In this document: positions 7,436 through 63,388 of the stretch, piece after piece
How positions within the stretch are numbered: the stretch's first letter is position 1
Layout: each line of letters opens with the position of its first letter
Source: Escherichia phage ECp13
Sequence record: PP274704.1
Length of the DNA stretch: 64,000 bases
Reading direction: 5' to 3' (one strand)
Translations under genes and position numbers: made by a program
The notes under the pieces: generated by a model
Databases searched by the model: none
What the model was told of the DNA's origin: nothing
Seen by the model: the letters and a program-made list of their open reading frames with translations, nothing else

Positions 7436-8160
7436 ATGAAACTAATCTTTTTAAGTGGTGTAAAGCGCAGTGGAAAAGATACTACTGCAGATTTTATCAT
7501 GAATAATTATTCTGCAGTTAAATATCAACTTGCTGGTCCTATTAAAGATGCATTGGCTTATGCATGGGGTGTATTTGCAGCAAACAATGATTATCCTTGC
7601 TTAACTCGTAAAGAGTTTGAAGGAATTGATTATGATCGTGAGACTAATTTAAATCTGACTAAATTAGAAGTAATTACGATTATGGAACAAGCATTTTGCT
7701 ATCTTAATAGTAAAAGCCCAATTAAAGGTGTGTTTGTTTTTGATGACGAAGGAAAAGAATCGGTTACTTTCGTAGCATTTAACAAGATTGCTGACGTTAT
7801 AAATAATATTGAAGATCAATGGTCAGTCCGTCGTCTGATGCAAGCCCTAGGTACGGATTTGATTGTTAATAACTTCGACCGCATGTATTGGGTAAAATTA
7901 TTTGCTTTAGATTATCTTGATAAATTTAACTCAGGTTATGATTATTATATCGTTCCTGATACTCGTCAAGATCATGAAATGGATGCGGCTAGGGCGATGG
8001 GTGCTACAGTAATTCATGTAGTTCGTCCTGGTCAAAAATCCAATGATATGCATATTACAGAAGCTGGATTGCCAATTCGTGATGGCGATTTAGTAATTAC
8101 AAACGATGGTTCTCTTGAAGAACTTTTTTCTAAAATTAAAAATACACTAAAGGTACTATA

Positions 8161-8161: not shown

Positions 8162-8905
<744 letters not shown>

Positions 8906-26059: not shown

Positions 26060-26541
26060 TTATAACTATGGTTATTAATGAAAACTCTTGGCACTTTAAA
26101 ATTTACTCGGCATTTAATAGCACATGGAATCGTCCAAAAACGTTATGTGCTTATTTTTGGAAAACGTTTCTCCCGGTATTAGCGGTTTCAATTGTTGGAT
26201 TTGCAACTTTAACAGGTGCTGCAATCATTGGCCAAGAAATTTTAATTAAATTCTTTGTCTTTAGTAGTCTATGGACATTAGTTCCGGCTTCAATTGGTAT
26301 AGGTATTTTAGCATTATCGGTCATGGTTCTTATTGCTGTCGGGGCGGTAATTGGTCCTTCTTGGTTGTTAGACAAATATAACGACCGAAAGCTCAATAAA
26401 GAAATTGAGCTCATTGTACAAAACGAAGAACGAATCAAAAATGGACTTGAGCCTATTCAACCCAAGAAATCTATTATCGTCGAATTTTTAAAAGCGCGTA
26501 AAGCTAAAGTATGTCCTGTTATTGAATATAAGGCTGAATGA
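26056..26541 (+). CDS. multi-pass membrane protein
   Basis: 161 aa with about four hydrophobic helices. Confidence 0.55.
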   Translation: MIITMVINENSWHFKIYSAFNSTWNRPKTLCAYFWKTFLPVLAVSIVGFATLTGAAIIGQEILIKFFVFSSLWTLVPASIGIGILALSVMVLIAVGAVIGPSWLLDKYNDRKLNKEIELIVQNEERIKNGLEPIQPKKSIIVEFLKARKAKVCPVIEYKAE

Positions 26542-27551
26542 TGAAAACAGTAATGAAAAGCTATTTTGGTAGTCATCTTTATGGAACTTCTACTCCAGAA
26601 TCTGATGTAGATTTTAAAGAAATCTTTGTTCCTCCTGCTCGCGATATTCTTATCGGAAATGTTAAAGAGCATATGAGTAAAAACACTAACAACACATCAT
26701 CTAAAAACACTAAAGATGATATTGACCATGAACTATACAGTCTTAAATATTTCTTTAAATTAGCTGCAGATGGTGAAACTGTAGCATTGGATATGCTCCA
26801 TACTCCACCTGAACTAGTGGTTAAATCAGATTTGCCTGATGTATGGAAGTTTATTCAAGACAATCGTTCTCGTTTTTATACGACTAACATGAAATCCTAT
26901 TTAGGATATGTCCGCAAGCAAGCTTCTAAATACGGTGTTAAGGGTTCTCGTTTGGCCGCATTGCGTGATGTATTGAAAGTAGTTAATCAAATCCCCGATC
27001 AGTGGGTTGATTATCAAGAAGGAATCCCTGATAGACTTCGTCGTACTAAGGTAGAAGATATCAAACACAGACTCCCTGAAAATGAGTTCTGTGAATGGGT
27101 ATTCCATAATCATGAGAAAACAGGCCCACAAACGTTCTACACTGTGTTGGGTCGTAAATATCAGACAACACTTTCTCTTATTGAACTTAAGCAGTCACTG
27201 AACAAATTAGATGCTGAATACGGCGAACGCGCTCGTAAGGCTGAAGCGAATGAGGGCATTGACTGGAAAGCTCTGAGTCATGCTTGTCGTGGTGGACTCC
27301 AACTATTGGAAATTTACAAAACAGGTGACTTAGTTTATCCACTTCAAGACGCTCCATTTATTCTCGACGTGAAGCTGGGTAAACACCCATTTAAAACTGT
27401 TCAAGAGTTTTTGGAAGATGTGGTCGATCAAGTAGAAGCAGCATCCATTGAAGCTTCTAAGAACGGTATGCAGCAAAAAGTAGACATGGGTTTCTGGGAT
27501 GACTTCCTTGAGAGGGTTTATCTTGAAAACCATCGAAGTTATTATAAATGA
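26538..27551 (+). CDS. nucleotidyltransferase-fold protein (Pol-beta superfamily-like)
   Basis: 337 aa; N-terminal G-S-x9-D-x-D signature FGSHLYGTSTPESDVDF. Confidence 0.6.
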   Translation: MMKTVMKSYFGSHLYGTSTPESDVDFKEIFVPPARDILIGNVKEHMSKNTNNTSSKNTKDDIDHELYSLKYFFKLAADGETVALDMLHTPPELVVKSDLPDVWKFIQDNRSRFYTTNMKSYLGYVRKQASKYGVKGSRLAALRDVLKVVNQIPDQWVDYQEGIPDRLRRTKVEDIKHRLPENEFCEWVFHNHEKTGPQTFYTVLGRKYQTTLSLIELKQSLNKLDAEYGERARKAEANEGIDWKALSHACRGGLQLLEIYKTGDLVYPLQDAPFILDVKLGKHPFKTVQEFLEDVVDQVEAASIEASKNGMQQKVDMGFWDDFLERVYLENHRSYYK

Positions 27552-42999: not shown

Positions 43000-44202
43000 A
43001 TGAAAGTATGCATTTTTATGGCTCGAGGTCTTGAAGGTTGCGGCGTAACTAAATTTTCTCTCGAGCAGCGTGATTGGTTTATTAAAAATGGTCATGAAGT
43101 AACTTTGGTTTATGCTAAAGATAAATCATTTACCCGTAATTGCGCGCATGATTATAAATCATTTTCAATTCCGGTTTTATTGGCAAAAGAATACGATAAA
43201 ACACTTAAGCTGGTAAATGATTGTGATATTCTAATTATCAATTCAGTTCCTGCTACTTCAGTCGAAGAAGACACTATTAATAACTATAAAAAAATTATTG
43301 ATAACATTAAACCTTCAGTTCGTGTTGTAGTTTATCAACATGACCATTCTTCTCTTTCTTTGCGCCGAAATTTGGGATTAGAAGAAACTGTTCGTCGAGC
43401 TGATGTTATTTTTAGTCATTCTGATAATGGCGATTTTAATAAAGTTTTGATGAAAGAATGGTATCCAGAAACAGTTTCTCTGTTTGATGATATTGAAGAA
43501 GCACCGACTGTATACAACTTTCAGCCTCCTATGGATATTGCGAAGGTTCGATCAACCTACTGGAAAGATGTTTCTGAAATTAATATGAATGTCAACCGTT
43601 GGATCGGTCGTACGACTACATGGAAAGGTTTTTATCAGATGTTTGATTTTCACGAAAAACATCTTAAACCTGCGGGATTAAGTACTATTATGGAAGGTCT
43701 GGAACGTTCTCCTGCGTTCATTCCTATTAAAGAAAAAGGAATTCCATACGAATATTATCGTCTTCATCAAGTAGACCAAATTAAAATTGCTCCTAATTTG
43801 CCGACGCAAATTCTCGACCGTTATGTAAATAGCGAAATGCTTGAACGCATGAGTAAATCCGGATTTGGTTATCAGCTGAGTAAGTTGGATAAAAAATATC
43901 TACAACGTTCTTTAGAATATACTCATCTCGAGCTTGGTGCGTGTGGAACAATTCCAGTATTTTGGAAATCTACTGGCGAAAATTTAAAATTCCGTGTTGA
44001 TAATACTCCGTTAATTTCTCATGATAGCGGTATCGTTTGGTTTGATGAAAATGACATGGAATCAACATTTGAGCGTATTAAAGAACTGTCATCTGACCGA
44101 AATCTTTATGACCGTGAACGCGAAAAAGCTTATGAATTTTTGTATCAGCATCAAGATTCAAGCTTCTGCTTTAAAGAACAGTTTGACATTATTACAAAAT
44201 AA
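43000..44202 (+). CDS. a-gt: DNA alpha-glucosyltransferase
   Basis: 400 aa; ...CIFMARGLEGCGVTKFSLEQRDWFIKNGHEVTLVYAKDKSF... matches recalled T4 alpha-gt. Confidence 0.92.
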   Translation: MKVCIFMARGLEGCGVTKFSLEQRDWFIKNGHEVTLVYAKDKSFTRNCAHDYKSFSIPVLLAKEYDKTLKLVNDCDILIINSVPATSVEEDTINNYKKIIDNIKPSVRVVVYQHDHSSLSLRRNLGLEETVRRADVIFSHSDNGDFNKVLMKEWYPETVSLFDDIEEAPTVYNFQPPMDIAKVRSTYWKDVSEINMNVNRWIGRTTTWKGFYQMFDFHEKHLKPAGLSTIMEGLERSPAFIPIKEKGIPYEYYRLHQVDQIKIAPNLPTQILDRYVNSEMLERMSKSGFGYQLSKLDKKYLQRSLEYTHLELGACGTIPVFWKSTGENLKFRVDNTPLISHDSGIVWFDENDMESTFERIKELSSDRNLYDREREKAYEFLYQHQDSSFCFKEQFDIITK

Positions 44203-50931: not shown

Positions 50932-53628
50932 ATGAAAGAATTTTATATCTCTATCGAAACAGTCGGAAATAACATTGTTGAGCGTTATATTGATGAAAAT
51001 GGAAAGGAACGTACTCGTGAAGTAGAATATCTTCCGACTATGTTTAGGCATTGTAAGGAAGAGTCAAAATACAAAGACATTTATGGTAAAAATTGTGCTC
51101 CTCAAAAATTTCCATCAATGAAAGATGCACGAGACTGGATGAAGCGAATGGAAGACATCGGTCTCGAAGCTCTTGGTATGAACGATTTTAAACTCGCTTA
51201 TATCAGTGATACATATGGTTCAGAAATTGTTTATGACCGAAAATTTGTTCGTGTAGCTAACTGTGACATTGAGGTTACTGGCGATAAATTTCCTGACCCA
51301 ATGAAAGCAGAATATGAAATTGATGCTATCACTCATTACGATTCAATTGACGACCGTTTTTACGTCTTTGATTTGTTGAATTCAATGTACGGTTCAGTAT
51401 CAAAATGGGATGCAAAGTTAGCTGCTAAGCTTGACTGTGAAGGTGGTGATGAAGTTCCTCAAGAAATTCTTGACCGAGTAATTTATATGCCATTCGATAA
51501 TGAGCGTGATATGCTCATGGAATATATTAATCTCTGGGAACAGAAACGACCTGCTATTTTTACCGGTTGGAATATTGAGGGATTTGACGTTCCGTATATT
51601 ATGAATCGCGTTAAAATGGTTCTCGGTGAACGCAGTATGAAACGCTTCTCTCCAATCGGTCGAGTAAAATCTAAACTAATTCAAAATATGTACGGTAGCA
51701 AAGAAATTTATTCTATTGATGGCGTATCTATTCTTGATTATTTAGATTTGTACAAGAAATTCGCATTTACTAATTTGCCATCGTTCTCTTTGGAATCAGT
51801 TGCTCAACATGAAACCAAAAAAGGTAAATTGCCGTACGATGGTCCTATTAATAAACTTCGTGAAACTAATCATCAACGATACATTAGTTATAACATCATT
51901 GACGTAGAATCAGTTCAAGCAATTGATAAAATTCGTGGGTTTATCGATCTAGTTTTAAGTATGTCTTATTACGCTAAAATGCCTTTTTCTGGTGTAATGA
52001 GTCCTATTAAAACTTGGGATGCTATTATTTTTAACTCACTGAAAGGTGAACATAAGGTTATTCCTCAACAAGGTTCGCACGTTAAACAGAGTTTTCCAGG
52101 TGCATTTGTGTTTGAACCTAAACCGATTGCTCGTCGATACATTATGAGTTTTGACTTGACGTCTCTGTATCCTAGCATTATTCGTCAGGTTAACATTAGT
52201 CCTGAGACTATTCGCGGGCAGTTTAAAGTTCATCCAATTCATGAATATATCGCAGGAACAGCTCCTAAGCCAAGTGATGAATATTCTTGCTCTCCGAATG
52301 GATGGATGTATGATAAGCACCAAGAAGGTATCATTCCAAAGGAAATCGCTAAAGTATTTTTCCAGCGTAAAGATTGGAAAAAGAAAATGTTCGCGGAAGA
52401 AATGAATGCCGAAGCTATTAAAAAGATTATTATGAAAGGTGCAGGGTCTTGCTCAACTAAACCAGAAGTTGAACGATATGTTAAGTTCAGTGATGATTTC
52501 TTAAACGAATTATCGAATTACACCGAATCTGTTCTTAATAGTCTGATCGAAGAATGTGAAAAAGCAGCTACACTTGCTAACACAAATCAGCTGAACCGTA
52601 AAATTCTTATTAACAGTCTTTATGGTGCTCTTGGTAATATTCATTTCCGTTACTATGATTTGCGAAATGCTACTGCTATCACAATTTTCGGTCAAGTCGG
52701 TATTCAGTGGATTGCTCGCAAAATTAATGAATATCTGAATAAAGTATGTGGAACTAATGGTGAAGATTTCATCGCAGCAGGTGATACTGATTCGGTATAT
52801 GTTTGTGTAGATAAAGTTATTGAAAAAGTAGGTCTTGATCGCTTTAAAGAACAAAATGATTTAGTTGAATTCATGAATCAGTTTGGTAAGAAAAAGATGG
52901 AACCTATGATTGATGTTGCATATCGTGAGTTATGTGATTATATGAATAACCGCGAGCATCTGATGCATATGGACCGTGAAGCTATTTCTTGCCCTCCGCT
53001 TGGTTCAAAGGGTGTTGGTGGATTTTGGAAAGCGAAAAAACGTTATGCTCTGAACGTTTATGATATGGAAGATAAGCGATTTGCCGAACCGCATCTAAAA
53101 ATCATGGGTATGGAAACTCAGCAGAGCTCAACACCAAAAGCAGTACAAGAAGCTCTCGAAGAAAGTATTCGTCGTATTCTTCAGGAAGGCGAAGAGTCTG
53201 TCCAAGAATACTACAAGAACTTTGAGAAAGAATATCGTCAACTTGACTATAAAGTTATTGCTGAAGTAAAAACTGCGAACGATATAGCGAAATATGATGA
53301 TAAAGGTTGGCCAGGATTTAAATGCCCGTTCCATATTCGTGGCGTACTAACTTATCGTCGAGCTGTTAGCGGTTTAGGTGTAGCTCCAATTTTGGATGGA
53401 AATAAGGTAATGGTTCTTCCATTACGTGAAGGAAATCCATTTGGTGATAAGTGCATTGCTTGGCCATCAGGCACAGAACTTCCAAAAGAAATTCGTTCTG
53501 ACGTACTGTCTTGGATTGACTACTCAACTTTGTTCCAAAAATCGTTTGTTAAACCGCTTGCGGGTATGTGTGAATCGGCAGGTATGGACTATGAGGAAAA
53601 AGCTTCGTTAGACTTCCTGTTTGGCTGA
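50932..53628 (+). CDS. 43: DNA polymerase gp43
   Basis: 898 aa as T4 gp43; family B polymerase and exonuclease motifs. Confidence 0.95.
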   Translation: MKEFYISIETVGNNIVERYIDENGKERTREVEYLPTMFRHCKEESKYKDIYGKNCAPQKFPSMKDARDWMKRMEDIGLEALGMNDFKLAYISDTYGSEIVYDRKFVRVANCDIEVTGDKFPDPMKAEYEIDAITHYDSIDDRFYVFDLLNSMYGSVSKWDAKLAAKLDCEGGDEVPQEILDRVIYMPFDNERDMLMEYINLWEQKRPAIFTGWNIEGFDVPYIMNRVKMVLGERSMKRFSPIGRVKSKLIQNMYGSKEIYSIDGVSILDYLDLYKKFAFTNLPSFSLESVAQHETKKGKLPYDGPINKLRETNHQRYISYNIIDVESVQAIDKIRGFIDLVLSMSYYAKMPFSGVMSPIKTWDAIIFNSLKGEHKVIPQQGSHVKQSFPGAFVFEPKPIARRYIMSFDLTSLYPSIIRQVNISPETIRGQFKVHPIHEYIAGTAPKPSDEYSCSPNGWMYDKHQEGIIPKEIAKVFFQRKDWKKKMFAEEMNAEAIKKIIMKGAGSCSTKPEVERYVKFSDDFLNELSNYTESVLNSLIEECEKAATLANTNQLNRKILINSLYGALGNIHFRYYDLRNATAITIFGQVGIQWIARKINEYLNKVCGTNGEDFIAAGDTDSVYVCVDKVIEKVGLDRFKEQNDLVEFMNQFGKKKMEPMIDVAYRELCDYMNNREHLMHMDREAISCPPLGSKGVGGFWKAKKRYALNVYDMEDKRFAEPHLKIMGMETQQSSTPKAVQEALEESIRRILQEGEESVQEYYKNFEKEYRQLDYKVIAEVKTANDIAKYDDKGWPGFKCPFHIRGVLTYRRAVSGLGVAPILDGNKVMVLPLREGNPFGDKCIAWPSGTELPKEIRSDVLSWIDYSTLFQKSFVKPLAGMCESAGMDYEEKASLDFLFG

Positions 53629-54602: not shown

Positions 54603-55343
54603 ATGATTAATGACTCTTTGACAGTTGAAGAAACTCGTCTTCATTTGGGAATTGCGTTAAAGGAAAAAGATTTCGTAATTGATAAAACTGGCGTTAAAAC
54701 TATTGAAATTATTGGCGCATCATTTGTAGCAGATGAACCGTTTATTTTTGGCGCTCTTAATGATGAATACATTCAGCGTGAACTTGAATGGTATAAATCT
54801 AAAAGTTTGTTTGTTAAAGATATTCCGGGTGAAACACCGAAGATTTGGCAACAGGTAGCATCTTCTAAAGGCGAAATTAACTCGAATTATGGTTGGGCCA
54901 TCTGGTCAGAAGATAACTATGCCCAGTATGATATGTGTTTAGCTGAACTTGGTCAAAATCCTGATTCTCGACGTGGTATCATGATTTATACTCGTCCATC
55001 CATGCAGTTTGACTACAATAAAGATGGTATGTCAGATTTCATGTGTACGAATACAGTACAGTACCTGATTCGTGATAAGAAAGTCAATGCAGTAGTAAGC
55101 ATGCGTTCAAATGACGTGGTCTTCGGATTCCGTAATGATTATGCATGGCAAAAATACGTACTAGATAAATTAGTATCTGATTTGAATGCAGGTGATTCAA
55201 CTCGTCAGTATAAAGCAGGTTCCATTATATGGAATGTCGGGAGCCTTCATGTGTATTCCCGTCATTTTTATTTGGTTGACCATTGGTGGAAAACTGGCGA
55301 AACTCATATTGCGAAAAAAGATTATAACGGTGAGTGGAAATGA
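54603..55343 (+). CDS. 42: dCMP hydroxymethylase gp42
   Basis: 246 aa as T4 gp42. Confidence 0.92.
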   Translation: MINDSLTVEETRLHLGIALKEKDFVIDKTGVKTIEIIGASFVADEPFIFGALNDEYIQRELEWYKSKSLFVKDIPGETPKIWQQVASSKGEINSNYGWAIWSEDNYAQYDMCLAELGQNPDSRRGIMIYTRPSMQFDYNKDGMSDFMCTNTVQYLIRDKKVNAVVSMRSNDVVFGFRNDYAWQKYVLDKLVSDLNAGDSTRQYKAGSIIWNVGSLHVYSRHFYLVDHWWKTGETHIAKKDYNGEWK

Positions 55344-56182
55344 TTCAATTCGTAATTCCAAGCTATCAACGCGTAGGGGCAGTTTCTGCCCTTGATATGT
55401 TTCCGACTGATTATGAACCTCATATTGTAGTACGTGAACACGAAGAAAAAGCTTATTATGACGCTTACGGGTCTAGAGCTAAAATTATAACTATTCCTGA
55501 TGATGTTAATGGAATTGCTGGTACTCGTAAAGCAATTACTGATATGTATGCAGGTCAACGAATTTGGATGATTGATGATGATACTACTATTCGTATGAGT
55601 TCAATGCGAAAGAAAGATGATCGTCGCTGCGTAGATAAAATTAATCAGTTAACTCGTGAACAGTTCTATGAATTGATTCAATACGTTGAAGATGCCATGG
55701 ATTGCGGGTATTATCACGGTCATGCTCGTCTACCTATTTTTAAAATTACTTCATCTTGGGGTAATTATCGTGAAAATTCATATGGATTCACGAATACTTG
55801 GTATGACCTCGGGAAACTTACAACAGAACAAATTGGGTATGGAAAAATTGATTTATGCGAAGATATGTATGCATTTCTCAATTTAATTAATCAAGGTTAT
55901 CCGCATTTGGCCTTGTTCAAATATCTGGTTGTGTCTGGAAAAGCACAGGCTCCTGGCGGATGTAGTTCAATTCGTAGTAATTCAAAACATAATAGAGCTC
56001 TTGAGCAAATCAATAGAGAGTTTCCAGAGCAAGCTCGTTGGAAAACATCGAATATCGAAAAGAGAAAATCGTTGGGTGAAGAAGACGAGCCATTAAAAGT
56101 TCTTCGCATGTGTGTTTCGCGCAAAGAAAAATCAGAAGCATTTCATAAGTTTAATGCTATTCATCCAATAGCAGTTGATTAA
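55340..56182 (+). CDS. DNA glycosyltransferase with DXD motif at the beta-gt locus (not T4-type beta-gt)
   Basis: 280 aa from ATG at 55340; DXD-like RIWMIDDDTTIR; unrelated to the recalled 351-aa T4 beta-gt. Confidence 0.7.
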   Translation: MIQFVIPSYQRVGAVSALDMFPTDYEPHIVVREHEEKAYYDAYGSRAKIITIPDDVNGIAGTRKAITDMYAGQRIWMIDDDTTIRMSSMRKKDDRRCVDKINQLTREQFYELIQYVEDAMDCGYYHGHARLPIFKITSSWGNYRENSYGFTNTWYDLGKLTTEQIGYGKIDLCEDMYAFLNLINQGYPHLALFKYLVVSGKAQAPGGCSSIRSNSKHNRALEQINREFPEQARWKTSNIEKRKSLGEEDEPLKVLRMCVSRKEKSEAFHKFNAIHPIAVD

Positions 56183-60604: not shown

Positions 60605-61633
60605 ATGTCATCAATACCTTGGATTGATAATGAGTTTGCATACCGTGCATTAGCTCATTTACCTAAATTCACACAAGTAAATAATAGTTCAACTTTTAAA
60701 TTGCGGTTTAGATGCCCTGTTTGTGGAGATTCAAAAACCGACCAAAATAAAGCCCGTGGATGGTATTATGGTGATAATAATGAAGGAAATATTCATTGTT
60801 ATAACTGCAACTATCATGCACCAATCGGAATATATTTAAAGGAGTTTGAACCTGATTTATATCGTGAGTATATCTTTGAAATAAGAAAAGAAAAAGGTAA
60901 AAGTCGTCCAGTAGAAAAACCTAAAGAACTTCCTAAACAACCTGAGAAGAAAATAATTAAATCTCTTCCGTCATGCATTAGATTAGATAAACTGGCGGAA
61001 GACCATCCAATTATAAAATATGTAAAAGCTCGTTGTATTCCAAAGAATAAATGGAAATATCTTTGGTTTACAACCGAATGGCCTAAATTAGTTAATAGTA
61101 TAGCGCCAGGAACATATAAAAAGGAAATACCTGAGCCTCGTCTTGTTATTCCAATTTATAATGCTAACGGAAAAGCTGAGTCTTTTCAAGGACGTGCATT
61201 AAAGAAAGATGCTCCTCAAAAATATATCACCATCAAAGCTTATCCTGAGGCAACAAAAATTTATGGAGTTGAACGGGTTAAAGATGGTGATGTATATGTT
61301 CTAGAAGGACCTATAGATTCACTTTTTATTGAAAATGGTATAGCTATTACGGGCGGTCAATTAGACCTAGAAATTGTTCCATTTAAAGATAGACGTGTAT
61401 GGGTTTTAGATAATGAACCTCGTCATCCTGACACTATTAAACGAATGACTAAATTGGTCGATGCAGGAGAAAGGGTTATGTTTTGGGACAAATCTCCCTG
61501 GAAATCAAAAGATGTTAATGATATGATTAGAAAGGAAGGTGCAACCCCTAAACAAATTATGGAATATATGAAAAATAATATTGCCCAAGGGTTGATGGCT
61601 AAAATGCGGCTATCTAAATATGCTAAGATTTAA
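60605..61633 (+). CDS. 61: DNA primase gp61
   Basis: 342 aa; zinc ribbon CPVCGDS...CYNCNYH; matches T4 gp61. Confidence 0.92.
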   Translation: MSSIPWIDNEFAYRALAHLPKFTQVNNSSTFKLRFRCPVCGDSKTDQNKARGWYYGDNNEGNIHCYNCNYHAPIGIYLKEFEPDLYREYIFEIRKEKGKSRPVEKPKELPKQPEKKIIKSLPSCIRLDKLAEDHPIIKYVKARCIPKNKWKYLWFTTEWPKLVNSIAPGTYKKEIPEPRLVIPIYNANGKAESFQGRALKKDAPQKYITIKAYPEATKIYGVERVKDGDVYVLEGPIDSLFIENGIAITGGQLDLEIVPFKDRRVWVLDNEPRHPDTIKRMTKLVDAGERVMFWDKSPWKSKDVNDMIRKEGATPKQIMEYMKNNIAQGLMAKMRLSKYAKI

Positions 61634-61830
61634 ATTAACCCAACTAAAGCAAATGCTAAATCTACGAATGTATCAAGAGTAATTACTGGAATATTAACGC
61701 CATGAGCAATAGCAATTGGCGATAAAACAAAATTCCAGAGTAAAATTCCTACCATAGCAGAAATAGTAAAAGCTATACGTTTTTTATTACCTTTTATGGC
61801 ATTAACAAGTGCCATTAATTTTTGTACCAT
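61630..61830 (-). CDS. small membrane protein encoded antisense between 61 and 56
   Basis: 66 aa, two hydrophobic helices; strong SD AAGGAGG just upstream of the ATG on the minus strand. Confidence 0.4.
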   Translation of the reverse strand: MVQKLMALVNAIKGNKKRIAFTISAMVGILLWNFVLSPIAIAHGVNIPVITLDTFVDLAFALVGLI

Positions 61831-61901
61831 ATGTCCTCCTTATTGCTTTATATATTTATTGTATAATTAATCTACTAACCCATGAATTGAAAGGAAAAAT
61901 A

Positions 61902-62419
61902 ATGGCTTACTTTAATGAATGTAGTCAACTGATTGAAGGCGCTGATAAAGCTCAAAATGAATACTGGGATATTCTCGGCGATGAAAAAGACCCGCTGCAG
62001 GTTATGCTTGATATGCAGAAATCTCTGCAGGTTCGTTTAGCTAAAGATAAACCTGAATATAACCGTCATCCTGATGATTTGGCTACTGCAGGTGAAGTTG
62101 TTGATTGGCTGCGTAATCAGAAAGATTATATTGATGATGAATTCCGCGAACTTCTGACTTCTCTTGGTGGTATGAGCAATGGCGAAAAAGATGCATCTGC
62201 TGTATGGAAGCTTGGAAGTCGCAACACGGTGAACGTCGTGAAACTCTGATTACTGACTTATCTCCACAAGACCAGTTGGAAATTAAATTCGAAATGATTG
62301 ATATTCTTCATTTCGTTCTGAACATGTTCCAAGGTCTCGGTCTTACGGCTGAAGAAATCTTTAAACTTTATTATCTGAAAAATGCTGAAAACTTCGCTCG
62401 TCAAGACCGAGGTTATTAA
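61902..62419 (+). pseudogene. 56: dCTPase gene 56 disrupted by a frameshift (two overlapping ORFs)
   Basis: N-part from ATG 61902 stops at 62249; C-part (..SPQDQLEIKFEMIDILHF..RQDRGY) is in another frame to 62419; removing 8 bp at 62211-62218 gives about 169 aa. Confidence 0.7.
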
Positions 62420-62453
62420 TATAAACGACGGCTTAAAAGCTGTGAGAATTTAT

Positions 62454-62461
62454 TATAAATA
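62454..62461 (+). promoter_or_regulatory. late promoter TATAAATA for soc
   Basis: Exact TATAAATA about 30 bp upstream of soc. Confidence 0.6.
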
Positions 62462-62491
62462 GTCATGTAATTTAAATAAAAGGAGAATTAC

Positions 62492-62737
62492 ATGGCTAGT
62501 ACTCGCGGTTATGTTAATATTAAAACATTTGAGCAGAAATTAGATGGAAATAAGAAAATTGAAGGAAAGGAAATTTCTGTAGCTTTCCCTCTTTATTCTG
62601 ACGTTCACAAAATTTCTGGTGCTCATTACCAGACATTCCCTTCAGAAAAAGCAGCATATACTACTGTATACGAAGAAAATCAACGTGATGCATGGATTGC
62701 TGCAAACGAAGATCTGTGGAAAGTAACTGGTGGTTAA
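62492..62737 (+). CDS. soc: small outer capsid protein Soc
   Basis: 81 aa; MASTRGYVNIKTFEQKLDGNKKIEGKEISVAFPLY... matches recalled T4 Soc. Confidence 0.9.
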   Translation: MASTRGYVNIKTFEQKLDGNKKIEGKEISVAFPLYSDVHKISGAHYQTFPSEKAAYTTVYEENQRDAWIAANEDLWKVTGG

Positions 62738-62836: not shown

Positions 62837-63049
62837 ATGTTAAATCGTTGGATTAAACCAAATGAAGACCTCCAGAAGGTTCTTGATAAAGCTATCTCTG
62901 ATAAATGGGGTATGAAAAGCTGGGATTGTGATATCGTCACGCATTCATTCATGATGCATGCAGATGGTTCAGTCGAGTTCAATGCTGAAATGCGATACAC
63001 TGACTGGGGTGGATTTCAAAGAGTCGAATTTCAAAGAGGCTTTTTGTAA
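62837..63049 (+). CDS. hypothetical protein
   Basis: 70 aa; RBS GAGGAGAG. Confidence 0.5.
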   Translation: MLNRWIKPNEDLQKVLDKAISDKWGMKSWDCDIVTHSFMMHADGSVEFNAEMRYTDWGGFQRVEFQRGFL

Positions 63050-63169
63050 TGTTTATCTTTAATTGGTTTAAAAGTTTCTTTACGGATTTTTTTCTCTACA
63101 ACTCCCGGAGAAGGTGTAGTTCCTATTTCAAATGACTACCTTCCTTTAACTGTAGTTGAATATGTTTAT

Positions 63170-63388
63170 ATGGGAGATGGAACAGTAGAAGCGGTTACTA
63201 TGACTTATGAAGAAGCCCAGGAATATTATAAAAATCCTTGGCGCTGGTCAACACCTACATCATCTAATGCGCAGAATACACAGTCTAGTTCTGATTCATA
63301 TGACACTAATGTTCCTGTTCATGTATGGACGGGCGATTCATGTGGAAGTTCTTGTGATTCTAGTTGTTCATCTACATCTTGTGATTGA
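63170..63388 (+). CDS. hypothetical Ser/Cys-rich small protein
   Basis: 72 aa; C-terminal [15 protein letters not shown]. Confidence 0.45.

Follow-up and report, generated by a model that had tools for sequence, protein, structure and literature searches.

Gene 56 in the 64-kb window analysed here, a stretch of 64,000 nucleotides from Escherichia phage ECp13, is split into two reading frames by the loss of a single C. We estimate a probability of about three in four that the split is an uncorrected base-calling or assembly error in the consensus of an ordinary gene 56, and we infer that the lesion most likely originated in sequencing rather than in the phage. Replacing the one base gave a protein that perfectly matched gp56 of four relatives, the deletion was found in none of the 260 matching phage records, and two other genes in the window carried private length changes in mononucleotide runs.

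Gene 56 and its broken reading frame

The window belongs to a Tequatrovirus, a T2/T6-like T-even phage of the pSs-1/Sfk20 group. Its two end segments (1-25000 and 39001-64000, 25 kb each) were about 98% identical to pSs-1/Sfk20-type phages, and the two references, Sfk20 and pSs-1, taken together covered 99% of its length with matches of at least 85% identity. A 621-nt stretch around gene 56 was matched by 737 phage records, the best being Shigella phage Sfk20 (99.2%) and Escherichia phage EC121 (98.9%). The gene order in the window (61, a small antisense ORF, 56, soc, mrh.2, mrh.1, mrh) was the same as in Sfk20, EC121, P922 and RB51, and the position of gene 56, 3′ of the primase gene 61 and 5′ of soc, was kept in these four phages and in T4. 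In phages Killian, JE01 and GRNsp7, a homing-endonuclease insertion of about 650 nt adjoins gene 56.

Table 1. Coordinates of the features discussed, numbered from the first nucleotide of the window
Feature	Position	Strand	Details
dNMP kinase, gene 1	7436-8158		Full length
57B lesion, CCC to CC	8763..8764	+	ORF 8403-8857 in relatives; premature TAG 8802-8804; 0/502 records
Alpha-glucosyltransferase gene	43000-44199		Full length
DNA polymerase, gene 43	50932-53625		Full length
Gene 42	54603-55340		Full length; 97% identical to pSs-1
Beta-alpha-glucosyltransferase gene	55340-56179		Full length
Gene 61 (primase)	60605-61633		From the ORF list
66-aa antisense ORF, conserved	61630-61830		Between the primase gene and gene 56; 'RB32ORF030w' in RB51
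Shine-Dalgarno sequence AAGGA of gene 56	61891..61895	+	6 nt before the ATG; direct sequence reading
Gene 56, frame 1	61902..62249	+	ATG 61902, TGA 62247-62249; 115 aa; ORF list
Gene 56 lesion, one C missing	62211..62212	+	Relatives AAGCCTTGG, window AAGCTTGG; alignment A1 and indel list
Gene 56, C-terminal part, -1 frame	62213..62419	+	WKSQHGERRETL...ARQDRGY, stop TAA 62417-62419; ORF list
soc	62492-62737		Downstream of gene 56
mrh.1 lesion, T6 to T7	63087..63093	+	ATG 63049; ORF cut after about 30 codons; 0/462 records; alignment A2

Instead of a single uninterrupted ORF of 171-172 codons, gene 56 of the window consisted of a 115-codon ORF and a continuation in the -1 frame. The preliminary description had placed the frameshift correctly, with one frame that opens at ATG 61902 and ends at 62249, and the C-terminal part in another frame as far as 62419. 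The 115-aa product of frame 1 ends in ...ASAVWKLGSRNTVNVVKL before the stop; its residues 1-103 were 100% identical to gp56 of the relatives by tblastn and were followed by 12 out-of-frame residues, LGSRNTVNVVKL, and TGA. The -1 frame is open from at least ATG 62204 and encodes MEAWKSQHGERRETLITDLSPQDQLEIKFEMIDILHFVLNMF...ARQDRGY, in which the recognisable C-terminal part of gp56 reads ...SPQDQLEIKFEMIDILHFVLNMF...ARQDRGY. The ATG at 62204 heads this downstream frame, and the sequence upstream of it, GGCGAAAAAGATGCATCTGCTGT, has no Shine-Dalgarno sequence. Similarity of the unrepaired gene to its gp56 relatives was split over the two frames in tblastn searches. The C-terminal fragment matched Pfam dUTPase_2 (PF08761; E 3.7e-08, 34.3 bits against a curated cut-off of 22.9), and the 115-aa upstream fragment gave no Pfam match.

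Two blocks conserved with T4, DDEFRELL (residues 78-85) and EIKFEMID (residues 127-134), fall on opposite sides of the break. In the all-alpha NTP pyrophosphohydrolases, acidic blocks of this kind act as metal ligands, a putative role for these two, and sit in a single helical domain. No second gp56-like gene was found within the 64-kb window, and sequence searches for a solved structural homologue of gp56 returned none at E<=1.

To locate the lesion, the 518 nt of the window were aligned with the 519-nt gene 56 of Sfk20, EC121, P922 and RB51 (alignment A1). The alignment contained exactly one gap in the window, a C lost from AAGCCTTGG adjoining 62211. The lesion is therefore a 1-nt deletion, CC to C: compared with its relatives, the window lacks one nucleotide and has no extra 8 bp. 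At the junction, TGGAAGCCTTGGAAG (W-K-P-W-K) in the relatives is replaced by TGGAAGCTTGGAAG in the window; the codons GTA TGG AAG CCT TGG AAG TCG of the relatives correspond to GTATGGAAG-CTTGGAAGTCG in the window.

This result bears on the proposal that the frame was broken by an 8-bp quasi-duplication or by an engineered HindIII linker, a reading to which we now attach practically no credence. The strings on which it was built were read correctly: TGGAAGCTTGGAAGTC lies at 62205-62220, TGGAAG occurs at 62205 and again at 62213, 8 bp apart, AAGCTT lies between, and removal of 8 nt restores the frame. However, every relative in alignment A1 is 1 nt longer than the window, and the repeat is native: two copies of TGGAAG, 9 nt apart and coding for W-K-P-W-K, were present in every relative fetched and are mirrored as WKxWK in T4. 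Together, the alignment and the native repeat refute an insert. The HindIII site at 62208-62213 is an incidental by-product of the deletion, because loss of one C from AAGCCTT creates AAGCTT. As a mark of engineering the site was rejected, since AAGCTT is common in the window (38 sites observed, 29.5 +/- 4.7 expected). The 8-bp deletion put forward as the repair does restore an ORF arithmetically, of 169 aa, but its product, reading ...AVWKSQHGE..., drops three conserved residues (P-W-K).

When the single C was put back instead, the gene encoded a 172-aa protein that was 100% identical to gp56 of Sfk20, EC121, P922 and RB51. It reads ...AVWKPWKSQHGE... through the junction, and the longer junction-spanning stretch is ...AVWKPWKSQHGER.... 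The DNA of the searched gene 56 stretch was 94-99% identical between the window and these four relatives (about 1-6% differing). An alignment of both ORFs to T4 gp56 had been suggested as a check; that of the repaired protein gave 126/172 identical residues (73%) over the full length with E 1e-95. The repaired protein also matched Pfam dUTPase_2 (29.2 bits against the cut-off of 22.9) and PHROG 173 (NTP pyrophosphohydrolase; E 1.5e-46). Identification of the gene as the dCTPase gene 56 was thus upheld, by the similarity to T4 gp56 and by complete identity to RB51 gp56. On its sequence, the gene is an ordinary gene 56 of the T2/RB51-type allele, with a predicted dCTPase/dUTPase of 172 aa as its product; sequence, synteny and the Pfam profile all place it in the orthologue group, and it departs from the group only in lacking a single uninterrupted ORF. 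Downstream of the gap, alignment A1 showed no nucleotide differences from Sfk20 in gene 56, and therefore no sign that the gene is decaying.

Distribution of the deletion and other frame breaks

A 91-nt query spanning the junction matched 260 phage records, none of which carried the deletion (0/260) and none of which was 100% identical; the best matches were 98.9% identical and differed by the gap alone. The only metagenome match to the junction pattern, contig L009, was wild type. An exact protein look-up retrieved no entry for the 115-aa product of frame 1. The exact gp61 sequence was present on Logan contigs, the longer of which (L014) carries an intact 172-aa gp56. The deletion allele was not found in IMG/VR, where the wild-type 26-mer was also absent, nor was it found in GTDB genomes, E. 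coli genomes or plasmids. TB004, ESh34 and ECML-123-2, in which nothing is annotated at gene 56, were suspected of having a split gene and were ruled out, the ORF being intact in all three. The two-ORF arrangement of gene 56 is private to the window sequence among all sequences checked. Homologues with the same arrangement, which the preliminary description had named as grounds for abandoning its interpretation, did not appear: all 260 records have a single ORF.

Frame breaks in the rest of the window were screened by translating the Sfk20 and pSs-1 ORFs of at least 70 aa, searching them against the whole window and listing all nucleotide indels. Only three isolated frame-breaking indels separated the window from both Sfk20 and pSs-1, and they lay in genes 56, 57B and mrh.1. 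The remaining indels relative to these two phages were clustered and frame-neutral, in divergent patches. All three lesions are length changes in mononucleotide runs, and all three are private to the window (0/260, 0/502 and 0/462 records for 56, 57B and mrh.1, respectively). In the relatives, 57B encodes 151 aa and is annotated 'RNA ligase' in pSs-1. The gene mrh.1 (63049-63388) encodes 113 aa in the relatives, and the ORF list of the window shows just a 72-aa remnant of it from 63170.

In the corresponding region, a single frameshift of this type was present in pSs-1 and none in Sfk20. Because pSs-1 carries a single-base frameshift of its own, homopolymer blemishes do occur in deposited genomes of the pSs-1/Sfk20 group. 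The pSs-1 frameshift (3115-4124 of L008) splits a 337-aa ORF, partly annotated as a nucleotidyltransferase, that is annotated there as two CDS; the ORF is intact at window positions 26538-27551 and in Sfk20. Several conserved genes lack an annotation or are cut short in the Sfk20 record, among them the gp5 region (26613-29795 of L006), 57B and a short gp46. The screen found no frame breaks in the Sfk20 DNA under these genes, and the fault appears to lie in the annotation, not in the sequence.

The need for gp56 and the origin of the deletion

In T4, gp56 depletes dCTP and dCDP and supplies dCMP for gp42 (PMC2993671). Phages lacking gp56 make cytosine-containing DNA, which is attacked by Endo IV (denB) and whose transcription is prevented by Alc (PMC1635256); dC phages that form plaques also require mutations in denB and alc (PMC1635256). 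The statement that a hydroxymethylcytosine (hmC) phage could not survive a true null without compensating mutations is in agreement with this work (PMC1635256). The hmC pathway genes of the window (42, the beta-alpha- and alpha-glucosyltransferase genes, 1 and 43) were 96-100% identical to those of pSs-1. Because all five are intact, the phage resembles an ordinary hmC phage with a need for gp56, and in a wild isolate a true gene 56 null alongside this pathway would call for two or more additional loss-of-function mutations. Such suppressors could be present, because denB and alc are located outside the 64-kb window.

If the split is a consensus error, a single C of the CC pair would have been dropped, turning AAGCCTTGG into AAGCTTGG, and the miscall in gene 56 would be one of three homopolymer-length miscalls in the window. 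The phage itself would make a normal single-chain gp56, and this predicted 172-aa dCTPase/dUTPase would keep dCTP out of phage DNA and feed dCMP to gp42. We favour this explanation because a one-base repair gives a perfect match to gp56 of four relatives, because the lesion is private and the sequence downstream of it shows no decay, because 57B and mrh.1 carry private homopolymer changes, the classic signature of miscalls, because the deposited pSs-1 sequence shows a blemish of this type as well, and because gene 56 is essential and the genes it works with in the pathway are intact. Several points argue against it. As homopolymers go, the CC pair is very short, and miscalls are much commoner in long runs. 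In addition, the three private frameshifts may be real mutations, 57B and mrh.1 being dispensable genes, and denB and alc, outside the window, may carry suppressors of a gene 56 null. Sequencing error had been listed in the preliminary description as one alternative, and of those listed it is now the best supported.

That the deletion is real and gene 56 null, with suppressors such as denB and alc mutations outside the window or with a defective variant carried by complementation, is unlikely in our judgement. Taken as given, the sequence encodes only residues 1-103 of gp56 and 12 junk residues, and both the EIKFEMID block and the Pfam-recognisable C-terminus come after the break; moreover, viable phages without gene 56 function have been described in combination with denB and alc defects (PMC1635256). 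With suppressors, such a phage would make largely cytosine-containing DNA, as laboratory T4dC strains do. Against a null stand the intact state of gene 42, both glucosyltransferase genes and the dNMP kinase gene, all nearly identical to those of relatives, the lack of decay in the downstream half of gene 56, and the absence of the lesion from all 260 records. The two further private homopolymer frameshifts in the window also suggest data quality rather than selection, and a natural isolate would have to acquire at least two more loss-of-function mutations before it formed plaques. The stronger proposition, that the deletion is fixed in a natural T-even isolate that lacks dCTPase, carries natural suppressors (denB, alc or others) and has partly or largely unmodified cytosine in its DNA despite intact hydroxymethylase and glucosyltransferase genes, strikes us as decidedly improbable. 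If true, the existence of a dCTPase-less T-even phage in the wild would upset the view that hmC phages cannot do without gp56, and such a phage would be a natural counterpart to the laboratory T4dC strains.

A real deletion might also be tolerated if gp56 were rescued, either by -1 slippage of the ribosome within 62186-62249, for which GAAAAAG at 62184-62190 is one candidate site, or by separate translation of two halves, residues 1-103 and a fragment starting at ATG 62204. Both frames are open from about 62186 to 62249, so that a -1 shift there would give a near-full-length protein, and the in-frame ATG 62204 precedes the C-terminal part. By inspection, however, no X XXY YYZ heptamer lies in register within 62186-62249, and GAAAAAG, the only A-run, is short and out of register. 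Unassisted ribosomal slippage normally occurs at about 1% or less. Translation of separate halves is opposed by the lack of a Shine-Dalgarno sequence at ATG 62204 and by the position of the break, which parts the two conserved acidic blocks from each other within what is one helical domain in this superfamily. The arrangement occurs in no relative, so that nothing points to selection for it. A programmed frameshift, which the preliminary description had offered as another alternative, thus finds neither a canonical slippery heptamer in frame nor a precedent among the 260 relatives with a single ORF, and we regard rescue of either kind as highly improbable.

With a consensus error as the preferred explanation, the split in gene 56 holds no new biology, and present evidence points to a data blemish. 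Pending inspection of the reads, gene 56, 57B and mrh.1 should be annotated in the record as intact or flagged as frameshifted.

Comparison with T4, T4dC strains and other deposited phages

T4 gene 56 (gp56, NP_049646, 171 aa) is orthologous to the gene in the window, and once the latter is repaired the two products are 73% identical from end to end. The window shares with T4 the order 61, 56, soc, mrh.2, mrh.1, mrh, and the protein shares with T4 gp56 the DDEFRELL and EIKFE..D blocks and the WKxWK motif, which in T4 is W-K-K-W-K. Unlike T4, the window has a gene 56 that is interrupted by a 1-nt deletion and is of the T2/RB51 type, with 172 aa, and it lacks two genes, segF between 56 and soc and dam in the interval from 61 to 56 (window 61630-62492). 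In Sfk20, EC121, P922 and RB51, in contrast to the window, gene 56 is an uninterrupted 519-nt ORF.

When gene 56 of T4 (L010) was compared with the T2/RB51-type gene (alignment A3; window 62205-62260), the two were near-identical up to GTATGGAA and then diverged sharply over about 50 nt. The divergence begins precisely where the C is missing. SegF, a homing endonuclease of T4, presumably cuts T2-type gene 56 in the general area of this divergence; the coordinate of SegF cleavage in T2 gene 56 is absent from the reviews consulted.

Laboratory T4dC phages (42 amC87, 56 amE51, denB, alc) have an inactivated gene 56, as would the phage studied here if the lesion were real. T4dC strains are engineered multiple mutants of T4 that carry amber alleles and whose gene 42 is defective (PMC1635256). 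In contrast, the window derives from a phage other than T4, has an intact gene 42 and carries a frameshift as its lesion. The window does not come from a multiple mutant of the T4dC type, its gene 42 being full length. There is also a likeness to homopolymer-length consensus errors in deposited phage genomes. Although the run in gene 56 has just two bases, unlike typical error hot spots, the lesions resemble such errors in being single-base changes in mononucleotide runs, in being private to one sequence and in breaking ORFs that hundreds of relatives have kept.
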